Origin: a virus
Lineage: Duplodnaviria > Heunggongvirae > Uroviricota > Caudoviricetes
Direction: 5' to 3' (one strand)
IMG/VR virus record: IMGVR_UViG_2541047936_000001
DNA: 26,422 bases
Shown here in pieces: positions 6,198 through 8,564 of this stretch; within the stretch, counting starts at the first letter, position 1, and each line of letters opens with the position of its first letter. The notes beneath the pieces were generated by a model. The model did no database searches, was not told the origin of the DNA, and saw nothing but the letters and a program-made list of their open reading frames with translations. The position numbers and the translations under genes were made by a program.

Positions 6198-6389
6198 TTA
6201 AAGACCTGCCGGGATTTCGTTATTATCCTGGTGAATAACTTTATCGACCGGGTAACAGTTACCGGGAATTTTCTGTTCGGTTGCTGCAGTCACACACTCC
6301 TGCATTGTCCTGTGAACACTGACTGCAATATCAACTGGCTCTCCGGAAACAAGAAAAACTGTCAGAACAAGTGCAAATGCTGTATTCAT
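6198..6389 (-). CDS. ydfD: YdfD-like small lysis protein (63 aa) with N-terminal hydrophobic segment
   Basis: Internal start MNTAFALVLTVFLVSG within ORF 6198..6443; 4-bp overlap with dicB stop. Confidence 0.7.
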   Translation of the reverse strand: MNTAFALVLTVFLVSGEPVDIAVSVHRTMQECVTAATEQKIPGNCYPVDKVIHQDNNEIPAGL

Positions 6390-6574
6390 TGCCAGCATCC
6401 TTTTTGTATCGGACGTAAACGGGCCAGCATTGAAAGAATGCATATTTTATTTAATAACTCCCGTTCGTGTTTTCTCTTGTTAATGGCCTCTTCAGTAAAT
6501 ACAGGGTTACTGATAGTGACACCAATTTCAAAACAACCTTCAGACGTATTAACGTTTGGTAATAACGTTTCCAT
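6386..6574 (-). CDS. dicB: DicB cell-division inhibitor (62 aa)
   Basis: METLLPNVNTSEGCFEIGV...RLRPIQKGCWQ, internal start of ORF 6386..6679; downstream of dicF as in Qin. Confidence 0.8.
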   Translation of the reverse strand: METLLPNVNTSEGCFEIGVTISNPVFTEEAINKRKHERELLNKICILSMLARLRPIQKGCWQ

Positions 6575-6743
6575 TATCGCGTCCTCAACAATGAATTTTG
6601 TGATGCGATGCCTGGTGCCTCCAGGTGACGTTAACCAGTTAACAATTAACGCCGGATACAGAGAATCCACCCATAACACTGTTTTTGGTTTTAACTGTTC
6701 CGCGTGCGCTCAGCCGCATTCACCACATCACAAAATTCACTTT

Positions 6744-6801
6744 AAAAAGGGCGGCAGAGCAGTCACGGAGTAAAACTGATACCGCCAAACGTCACCAGAA
6801 A
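6744..6801 (-). ncRNA. dicF: DicF small RNA (about 53 nt plus terminator U-tract)
   Basis: Minus-strand sequence TTTCTGGTGACGTTTGGCGGTATCAGTTTTACTCCGTGACTGCTCTGCCGCCCTTTTT between ydfC and dicB. Confidence 0.65.
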
Positions 6802-7142
6802 ATTGATAACAGAGGGCGTTGCAGCGGGGTTGTCACTTAAGCGTATGGTCAACCTGACAACCCGGTGTCCTCAACGGGGGAAGGAATAACCCCGCCATAC
6901 TTACCGCCGCGCCATTTCGCGGATTGCCACAACCGGAAGCGCACGGTCGACGAAAATTTAACGACAGGCTATCTATGAACCAGCTACCTCGCCGTGCGCT
7001 TTCGCGTTATGGTCTGACTTTTCAGGGAAATATCCTTTCAGTAAACTGTCAATGCCGGATGCTCACCCGTGTCCGGCGCACGCACTCCACCTCACCCGTG
7101 GAGAACTCCTTAATTACTAACCTTAGCTTTGTTGATTAGCTA

Positions 7143-7361
7143 CTAACGCGGGTATGTAATCATTCTGGCAATGCTTAATGCCGCTGCTTTTTCCAGATTG
7201 GTGATATCCTGCTCCAGAGCGGACAGATTTTCAGCCTGCTTAGCTCTGGCTTCATTGGCCCATTTCAGATCCTGCGCTGCATTAATTTTCTGGTGCATCC
7301 ACTCATAAAGTTCATCATCGGTATAGTCTGGCGCGATGATGACGGGTTCTCGTTTCTGCAT
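7143..7361 (-). CDS. ydfC: YdfC-like protein (72 aa)
   Basis: ORF in the dicA-ydfABC operon position. Confidence 0.6.
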   Translation of the reverse strand: MQKREPVIIAPDYTDDELYEWMHQKINAAQDLKWANEARAKQAENLSALEQDITNLEKAAALSIARMITYPR

Positions 7362-7390
7362 ACTGATTCCTCGCGGTGCTGTTTCGCTTA

Positions 7391-7519
7391 TCAGCCGTTA
7401 GATTTTGCCGAACTGGAAAGCGCCTGTTTAAATTCGTTGAAGCTGAGAGCTTCTTCGCCTTCGGCAAGACCTTCGAAGTATTCTTCGTAAGCCTTTTCCA
7501 TGATTGTGTCGAAATCCAT
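7391..7519 (-). CDS. ydfB: YdfB-like small acidic protein (42 aa), absent from the ORF track (under 60 aa)
   Basis: Hand translation: MDFDTIMEKAYEEYFEGLAEGEEALSFNEFKQALSSSAKSNG; GGTGAG Shine-Dalgarno 5 nt upstream; 2-nt gap to ydfA stop. Confidence 0.55.
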   Translation of the reverse strand: MDFDTIMEKAYEEYFEGLAEGEEALSFNEFKQALSSSAKSNG

Positions 7520-7520
7520 A

Positions 7521-7676
7521 TCACTCACCTGAGTTTCTTTCCAGCCAGCGACGGGCACCATTTTCGGTTTTAAACGTTTTGCTTTTGGTATACGTCATCG
7601 CGGTGAACGTACCGTCCTGGTTGGGAAACACGCCGTACACCAGAGATTCGTTGTTGCCAAGATCGATAGTATCCAT
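7521..7676 (-). CDS. ydfA: YdfA-like protein (51 aa)
   Basis: Internal start MDTIDLGNNESLVYGVF of ORF 7521..7730. Confidence 0.6.
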   Translation of the reverse strand: MDTIDLGNNESLVYGVFPNQDGTFTAMTYTKSKTFKTENGARRWLERNSGE

Positions 7677-7842
7677 GCTGACCTCATTTCCCCTTAACGC
7701 TGGGGTAGCGGAACTGTTTGCTGAGAACACCGTGCGGTGTGTTGATGCAAATAAGATTAGCCATGGCTAACATATAGGTCAAGTGATTTTGTATGTTATG
7801 GCTAACATGATTGATGTGGTAAAAGATAACTCATTGATGATG

Positions 7843-8250
7843 TTATCTTTTATTTGTCCGCTGACGGGCTTTTAGTAATTCTTCAAAGAGTTTATTGAAG
7901 TTTTTTACTCGAGCTCGCATTTCGGCGAGCTGGGTATCCTGTTCTGATTCTGGCAGTGCATTAAACAGCTCAAGGAGCTCTAGTTCTTTGGGGGATAAGG
8001 CAACTGGCTTCTCAACAGGTGGTGTTGGTTGCTTGTCTTCATCGCCAAATAGAATCCATGTTGGTGAGCATTGCAATACTTTGCTGAGGGCAAAAAGGTT
8101 CTTCCCTGTAGGTTCACTATCATCCCGTTCCCATTGTGATACAGACACATGGGAGATTTTCAGGGCTTTAGCAAGAGACCTTTGGGTGTGTTTGAGGTTT
8201 TTCCGACGATACCTAATGCGTTCGCCGATAGTTAAATTTTTTGTTTCCAT
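7843..8250 (-). CDS. dicA: DicA-type HTH (XRE family) repressor, 135 aa
   Basis: METKNLTIGERIRYRRKNLKHTQRSLAKALKISHVSVSQWER...; divergent from dicC. Confidence 0.85.
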   Translation of the reverse strand: METKNLTIGERIRYRRKNLKHTQRSLAKALKISHVSVSQWERDDSEPTGKNLFALSKVLQCSPTWILFGDEDKQPTPPVEKPVALSPKELELLELFNALPESEQDTQLAEMRARVKNFNKLFEELLKARQRTNKR

Positions 8251-8333
8251 AGTTAGCTAATGCTAAATCGTATTGACTATGTTTTTGTTAACATCTATTT
8301 TGTTAGTCATGACTAACAATAAAGGTGTTTTAA
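8251..8333. promoter_or_regulatory. Divergent dicA/dicC promoter-operator region with palindromes TTAGCTAATGCTAA (8253-8266), TGTTAACA (8286-8293) and perfect TTAGTCATGACTAA (8303-8316)
   Basis: Palindromes read directly; two 14-mers share the form TTAG-N6-CTAA and lie 50 bp apart. Confidence 0.5.
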
Positions 8334-8564
8334 ATGCTTAAAACTGACGCTCTTTTGTATTTCGGTTCAAAAACAAAACTTGCACAAGCAGCAGGTATTC
8401 GTTTGGCTTCGCTTTATAGCTGGAAAGGGGATTTAGTTCCCGAAGGTCGCGCGATGCGTCTACAGGAGGCATCTGGCGGGGAGCTTCAGTATGATCCCAA
8501 AGTTTATGATGAATATCGTAAGACGAAGCGGGCGGGGCGGTTGAACAATGAAAATCACTCCTGA
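8334..8564 (+). CDS. dicC: DicC Cro-like regulator, 76 aa
   Basis: MLKTDALLYFGSKTKLAQAAGIRLASLYSWKGDL... Confidence 0.85.
   Translation: MLKTDALLYFGSKTKLAQAAGIRLASLYSWKGDLVPEGRAMRLQEASGGELQYDPKVYDEYRKTKRAGRLNNENHS

Follow-up and report, generated by a model that had tools for sequence, protein, structure and literature searches.

A Qin-type dicAC and dicBF immunity module in a fuller lambdoid prophage, with a candidate structured RNA between dicF and dicB

In Escherichia coli K-12 the cryptic Qin prophage carries the dicAC locus and the dicBF operon (b1569-b1576), in which work in K-12 has shown DicA and DicC to form a bistable switch like that of CI and Cro. DicA also activates its own promoter from the operator Oc (PMC3441716), and dicA is scored, and behaves, as an essential gene (PMC11481867). 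Expression from the dicB promoter (dicBp) rises 22-fold on deletion of dicA and 165-fold under the Rem antirepressor, the latter with filamentation that needs DicB or DicF, and the toxicity is gone in a dicB dicF double mutant (PMC10448788). YdfD lyses cells through inhibition of IspG, only if they are dividing, and co-expression of DicB prevents the lysis (PMC8835842); further functional literature on the module is available (PMC5069750). Here we describe positions 6198-8564 of the IMG/VR virus record IMGVR_UViG_2541047936_000001, a stretch of 26,422 nucleotides (nt) that we refer to as the window, where the same genes are found in the same order, on the same strands and with the same spacing as in Qin.

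The region is almost certainly the immunity switch together with the early-left (PL-like) operon of a DicA-type lambdoid prophage, as it survives in K-12 Qin. The nearest classical counterparts are the immunity regions and PL operons of lambda and P22 (CI/C2, Cro and Kil), which share with the window a divergent repressor/Cro pair, operators at two promoters and a host division inhibitor encoded in the early-left operon. In contrast to those phages, DicA has no RecA-cleavable domain; its antagonist is an antirepressor, an arrangement also seen in the Gifsy prophages (PMC10448788). The dicB operon additionally encodes a small RNA (sRNA). A LexA box (CTGT-N8-ACAG), sought as a possible means of SOS control of Rem or of the module, does not occur in the window.

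A first-pass annotation, made from the letters of the window, had proposed a complete set of dicA/dicC, ydfABC, dicF, dicB and ydfD, and every element was found where it had been placed, in Qin order and on the Qin strands. The limits of the module, 6198 and 8564, are exactly the stop codons of ydfD and dicC, and coordinates were fixed by agreement of the open reading frame (ORF) list, the RefSeq annotation of a genome matching at 100% identity (MEI003) and the K-12 MG1655 record. The dicA gene (7843-8250, minus strand) is intact and encodes a short CI/C2-like XRE-type repressor of 135 amino acids, 134/135 of them identical to K-12 (the difference being G43D), which matches the NCBIfam DicA profile at 235.6 bits against a cutoff of 101 (E 1.1e-70). 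HTH_3 is its only Pfam domain, and Pfam found no peptidase (self-cleavage) domain in it. Divergent from dicA, as the annotation had it, and separated from it by an 83-base-pair (bp) intergenic spacer lies dicC (8334-8564, plus strand), which encodes a Cro-like regulator of 76 amino acids identical to K-12 at 76/76 residues and 231/231 nt (Pfam P22_Cro, E 1.7e-11; NCBIfam DicC, 159.5 bits against a cutoff of 130, E 1.8e-47).

The remaining elements are all on the minus strand. They begin with ydfA (7521-7676; 51 amino acids, DUF1391, Pfam E 1.7e-28; 51/51 identical to K-12), ydfB (7391-7519; 42 amino acids, 41/42) and ydfC (7143-7361; 72 amino acids, 71/72). The dicF small RNA (6749-6801) follows as 53 nt with a hairpin and a T-run at its end, identical to K-12 at 53/53 positions; its match to Rfam RF00039 scores 76.7 bits (gathering score 48; E 1.5e-15). 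The consensus promoter/terminator scan missed its terminator, which was read by eye or inferred, and when the 211 nt surrounding dicF were folded the z-score was modest (-2.19), and we do not use it as support. Next is dicB (6386-6574), encoding a division inhibitor of 62 amino acids that acts via MinC (54/62 identical to K-12; Pfam DicB, PF05358, E 1.9e-36 over 1-62/62; NCBIfam E 4e-38), and finally ydfD (6198-6389), which overlaps dicB by 4 nt and encodes a DUF1482 lysis protein of 63 amino acids (59/63 identical; Pfam E 3.7e-25). The matches to the family models lie well above their cutoffs and far outside what chance would give. DicB and YdfD match their Pfam and NCBIfam profiles along the full length, and all seven ORFs are full length, equal in length to those of K-12, with no frameshift and no stop. 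The YdfD allele is found on at least 1000 contigs, and the 2,367-nt module as a query is covered to at least 80% in 763 of 5,426 complete E. coli genomes, with a partial match in 4,756. The locus is not a new kind of system; the module has been under study since the 1980s and occurs in most E. coli genomes, and the window adds one more intact copy.

Low identity to the Qin proteins had been named in the first-pass annotation as grounds for abandoning the assignment; alignment gave 87-100% at the protein level, 100% for dicF and 97.9% for the nucleotide sequence. This last figure comes from a blastn match of window 5339-8827 to K-12 1647357-1650844, over 3,489 nt with a single 1-nt gap. The intergenic regions are 96-100% identical to K-12, with spacings equal except for a 1-nt insertion, and the two loci share an operator family, a promoter layout and a Rem-type antirepressor encoded elsewhere in the prophage. 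They differ in that the Oc of the window is a perfect palindrome, DicA carries G43D, DicB is 87% identical and Rem 73% identical. What the sequence itself shows is that every part is there, intact, in order and nearly identical to its K-12 counterpart, and that the operators are conserved.

Such high identity, running from ydfX to ydfE, would fit the simple idea that the window holds the Qin cryptic prophage itself at its K-12 chromosomal position, but the surroundings leave this next to no chance of being true. The window starts in mtfA (1-837), adjoined by tRNA-Ser(CGA) at 892-981 and then an integrase gene, whereas K-12 Qin lies between ydfJ and rspB; the tRNA gene beside mtfA is the prophage attachment site and is different from the Qin site. 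Beyond the limits of 5339-8827, similarity to Qin is restricted to patches of 77-89% identity, and Qin lacks the replication genes, the intact exonuclease and the Q/tRNA region of the window. The K-12 homology ends at window 5339, which is the boundary of the insertion sequence (IS) IS2E within K-12 ydfE, and therefore ydfE is a truncated remnant (the first 767 nt) of the 823-amino-acid gene that stands intact in the window (3634-6105, minus strand). This exonuclease-family gene encodes a C-terminal Rv2179c-like 3'-5' exoribonuclease domain (Pfam E 1.5e-66), with a weak exodeoxyribonuclease VIII match, and is likely a continuation of the dicB operon. To the right of dicC there is a full-length YdaT-family gene of 173 amino acids, of which the 96-amino-acid YdfX of K-12 is the stump, followed by replication genes, hokD/sok and a Rem homologue (14422-14685, plus strand; 73% identity over 86 amino acids to K-12 Rem, E 5e-42) with putative activity on the DicA of the window. 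In its location and gene set the locus is a Qin-type module and not the Qin prophage.

Operators were examined in the two intergenic regions on either side of dicA. The predicted DicA binding site Oc (8299-8318), TTGTTAGTCATGACTAACAA, is a perfect 20-bp palindrome; it differs by one central base from K-12 Oc, TTGTTAGTCATAACTAACAA (PMC3441716), which has one palindrome mismatch. Two further repeats, at 8278-8294 and 8252-8266, resemble the operators more weakly. A dicC promoter-like site (8273-8301, plus strand), TTGACT-17-TATTTT, scored 9/12 matches in the consensus scan, and its -10 overlaps Oc; by analogy with K-12 it would act as the dicC promoter (PMC3441716). Between dicA and ydfA, the dicB-operon promoter region (7754-7809, minus strand) contains hexamers read by eye as a -35 TTGACC (7782-7777) and a -10 TAATCT (7759-7754), 17 bp apart, with an operator at 7755-7772 between them and a second at 7790-7809. 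These hexamers probably constitute dicBp, judging by K-12 dicBp. The operator pattern TGTTAGNCATNNCTAA has five matches at three sites in the 26-kb window, against 0.55 expected, and is confined to the dicA-dicC and dicA-ydfA regions. Among 31 loci, which represent three DicA alleles, the DicA operators are fixed in their outermost 7 bp at either end, the half-sites TGTTAG/CTAACA never varying, and the central 6 bp are variable, with TCATGA, TCATAA, TTATGA, CCATGG and others seen there.

Nothing in the sequence speaks against reading the region as an immunity switch and early-left operon, though some points call for caution. G43D of DicA adjoins the recognition helix; no part of the module has diverged as far as DicB, with 8/62 residues different from K-12; the exact DicB allele is rare, occurring on nine contigs; dicBp was not called by the consensus scan, its -10 matching only 3/6; and the prophage may be locked in place because its integrase is split by an IS. 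Two alternatives draw on these points, and we consider each of them with the variation found in other loci.

The first is that D43 together with the palindromic Oc has given DicA a new immunity specificity, hetero-immune to K-12 Qin. In its favour, residue 43 is just past the recognition helix and, of the eight intergenic differences from K-12, four are within operators. Across the 31 loci, however, TGTTAG/CTAACA is fixed and the centre is free, and D43 is paired with a K-12-type Oc in one locus (L022) and with other centres elsewhere, and we regard a change of specificity as very unlikely. The D43 allele occurs on at least 1000 contigs, and D43 is also found in more divergent DicA alleles. 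Covariation of residue 43 with the operator sequence was considered and rejected, as the central 6 bp varies irrespective of residue 43 among the 30 loci fetched via three DicA alleles; the G43 set carries no independent signal because it represents one clonal type.

The second is that the locus is a decayed, non-functional copy in which the repressor or the toxic genes have been inactivated, so that derepression would be without effect. The substitution beside the recognition helix, the eight changes in a rare DicB allele and the disrupted integrase all point that way, and yet the seven ORFs are full length, D43 is as widespread as just described, dicF is identical to K-12 and the operators are conserved. 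The DicB substitutions are K2E, D29E, Q36H, V47L and four in the last eight residues, the N-terminus reading MET LLPN against MKT LLPN in K-12. In published mutagenesis K2A, K2G and K2R retain activity, position 2 tolerating substitution and not deletion, and DicB without its C-terminal eight residues is still toxic (PMC4967827). K2E thus lies at a substitution-tolerant position and four changes in a dispensable segment; the changes are at tolerated places and, by that mutagenesis (PMC4967827), would be benign. We therefore hold decay to be highly improbable, and the variant residues of DicA and DicB appear to be a sign of neither decay nor new specificity.

For an immunity switch and early-left operon, we infer every functional step from the K-12 experiments by way of this near-identity. 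DicA, as a short XRE-family repressor without a self-cleavage domain, would bind 20-bp inverted repeats with the invariant core TGTTAG-N6-CTAACA, and Oc over the dicC promoter and the operators around the dicB-operon promoter between dicA and ydfA would keep both divergent early operons off. Derepression could be stochastic or follow from stress or a Rem-type antirepressor, and the Cro-like DicC would lock in the derepressed state. A polycistronic ydfABC-dicF-dicB-ydfD RNA would then be made, probably extending into the exonuclease gene, from which RNase III, RNase E and the dicF terminator would release the 53-nt DicF to base-pair with ftsZ and other mRNAs. Read-through transcripts would yield DicB, which would recruit MinC to the septum and block FtsZ rings, and also YdfD, the inhibitor of IspG. 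The expected net outcome is filamentation and growth arrest.

The first-pass annotation had described a division inhibitor, a small RNA and a lysis protein under repressor control, and had expected loss of DicA repression to be toxic to the host. The former holds in that the parts and operators are in place and repressor control has been published for K-12. The latter agrees with the published K-12 data on dicA deletion, Rem induction, filamentation and the essentiality of dicA; one refinement is that YdfD would not be the main source of toxicity, because the K-12 dicB dicF double mutant loses toxicity and DicB blocks YdfD lysis. Since the locus is the immunity region of a larger prophage, loss of DicA would also derepress dicC and the rightward operon. 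DicA would here act as master repressor for a prophage that is much fuller than Qin and whose integrase is broken.

In the deposited Escherichia phage PhiR42_1 (PV340562) the module is found whole, all 2,367 nt of it at 98.1% identity, with int, xis and exonuclease genes as neighbours, an arrangement that supports reading it as a phage early-left operon. A functional temperate phage, mEp460_ev081, likewise has dicB, dicF, dicAC and rem (PMC10448788). The window differs from both in that its integrase gene is split by a 1,310-bp IS3-family element. In phages Tritos and vB_EcoS-689R5 the match is limited to the stretch from ydfD to ydfA (query 1-1517) and the immunity region is a different one, and in one DicA-type locus (L033) kilR and ydaE replace dicB and ydfD. 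The shared block with another immunity and this exchange of cargo indicate that the cargo and the immunity region are separable mosaic units. Divergent DicF-like sequences were seen in five DicA-type loci (L018, L024, L027, L032 and L033) at 28.6-46.5 bits against the gathering score of 48; they occupy the position ahead of dicB where DicF is normally found or, in L033, the one ahead of kilR and ydaE.

We also found a candidate structured RNA in the dicF-dicB spacer, where the K-12 record (NC_000913, ~1649447-1649589) has no annotated feature. A permissive Rfam search of 6000-8700 gave a sub-threshold match there to STnc100 (RF02076; 34.6 bits, gathering score 47, E 3.3e-5). Similar sub-threshold matches occur in six other DicA-type loci, upstream of dicB in L018, L024, L025, L027 and L032 and upstream of kilR in L033; they come after the DicF-like match except in L025, for which none is listed. 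An IMG/VR scan for the shared motif TCACCNGGAGGCACCNGGC found it on at least 120 contigs. To derive a consensus, 109 distinct phage copies were aligned with MAFFT, without fitting to a structure, and folded with RNAalifold. The row for the window (6575-6717) was about 19 nt off in this alignment, the correct element being 6594-6736; K-12 and 30 other dicB-type rows were placed correctly.

The consensus has 27 pairs in five helices. Paired cells amount to 96.0%, compared with 36-45% when the partners are slid by 1-3 columns, compensatory cells number 558 compared with 43-130, and the covariation score was reached by none of 500 shuffles. A covariance model built from the 109-copy alignment (R1) matches the window spacer (6594-6736, minus strand) at 106.9 bits and the K-12 spacer at 107.9 bits. 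Between K-12 and the window, the 174-nt spacer has just two substitutions, at 6607 and 6608, which swap G-C and G-U pairs in the predicted helix P1. We place the RNA at 6603-6728 (minus strand, ~126 nt), with P1 formed by 6721-6728 and 6603-6610 and P5 by 6621-6625 and 6611-6615. Covariation among the 109 copies makes the predicted five-helix structure well supported. An HK022 put-type antiterminator (putL/putR) was considered as an identity for the element and rejected, as R1, run against the complete genome of HK022 with E allowed up to 1, gave no match.

The spacer RNA shares with the STnc100/PasD prophage sRNAs a five-helix architecture and the invariant motifs GGUGAAU and UCACCnGGAGGCACCnGGC. 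It differs from canonical STnc100 in its score below the gathering threshold, in compensatory differences in four helices and in having no downstream terminator. A terminator-like hairpin and T-run follow 50 of 74 canonical copies, mostly starting 10-25 nt past the extracted element, compared with only 2 of 33 dicB/kilR-type copies, which run directly into the ribosome-binding site of dicB or kilR. The RNA in the window spacer likewise does not have the intrinsic terminator of a stand-alone sRNA. The searchable STnc100/PasD literature contains no link of the family to dicB and treats STnc100 function as hypothetical. We tentatively propose, as a possibility to be taken seriously rather than as our expectation, that the dicBF operon, in K-12 too, holds a third conserved and unannotated RNA, a member of the STnc100/PasD family that has lost its terminator and precedes the start codons of the unrelated division inhibitors DicB and KilR by a constant distance. 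Such an RNA may be a cis-acting part of the mRNA that continues past the dicF terminator, affecting its stability, processing or translation, or may be cut out as an sRNA.

The window has a second, canonical copy of the family in its late region, between a DUF3927 gene and a sialate-esterase-like gene (Rfam 18371-18543, 100.8 bits), which lacks the 3' terminator portion of the Rfam model; R1 matches this copy at 18392-18516 (plus strand) with 100.5 bits. Among the IMG/VR contigs L055, L074, L127, L042 and L145 the same element occurs in tandem arrays in some, with a period of ~253 nt in L055 and L074, and in this set it is also found upstream of apparent holin-type small membrane protein genes and others.

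Other features of the window complete the prophage. The IS3-family element that splits the tyrosine integrase gene (1878-3187) has TGAACCGCCCCGGG... terminal inverted repeats and an ALIL frameshift pseudoknot at 2213-2329. The exact IS/integrase junction is absent from the complete E. coli genomes in the collection, the best full-length match being 94.9%. A DUF4224 gene lies between the integrase and exonuclease genes, and the hokD/sok type I toxin-antitoxin locus is at 13880-14204 (Rfam sok, 114 bits). Beyond the Rem homologue come Q, three tRNAs and late genes. The tRNA genes, downstream of Q at 17351-17600, have the anticodons CAT (tRNA-Ile in RefSeq), TCG (Arg) and TCT (Arg), and the annotation of the near-identical MEI003 genome shows no stx gene following them.

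We conclude that the window gives a clearer picture than K-12 of what the dicAC and dicBF genes belong to: they make up the early-left operon and immunity switch of a family of living phages, and here they come with an exonuclease gene that is unbroken and with a Rem-type antirepressor. The candidate spacer RNA is a modest lead. It may help to account for dicB expression downstream of the terminator of dicF, and it would tie the dicBF operon to a widespread phage RNA family, which is relevant to work on DicF and DicB.

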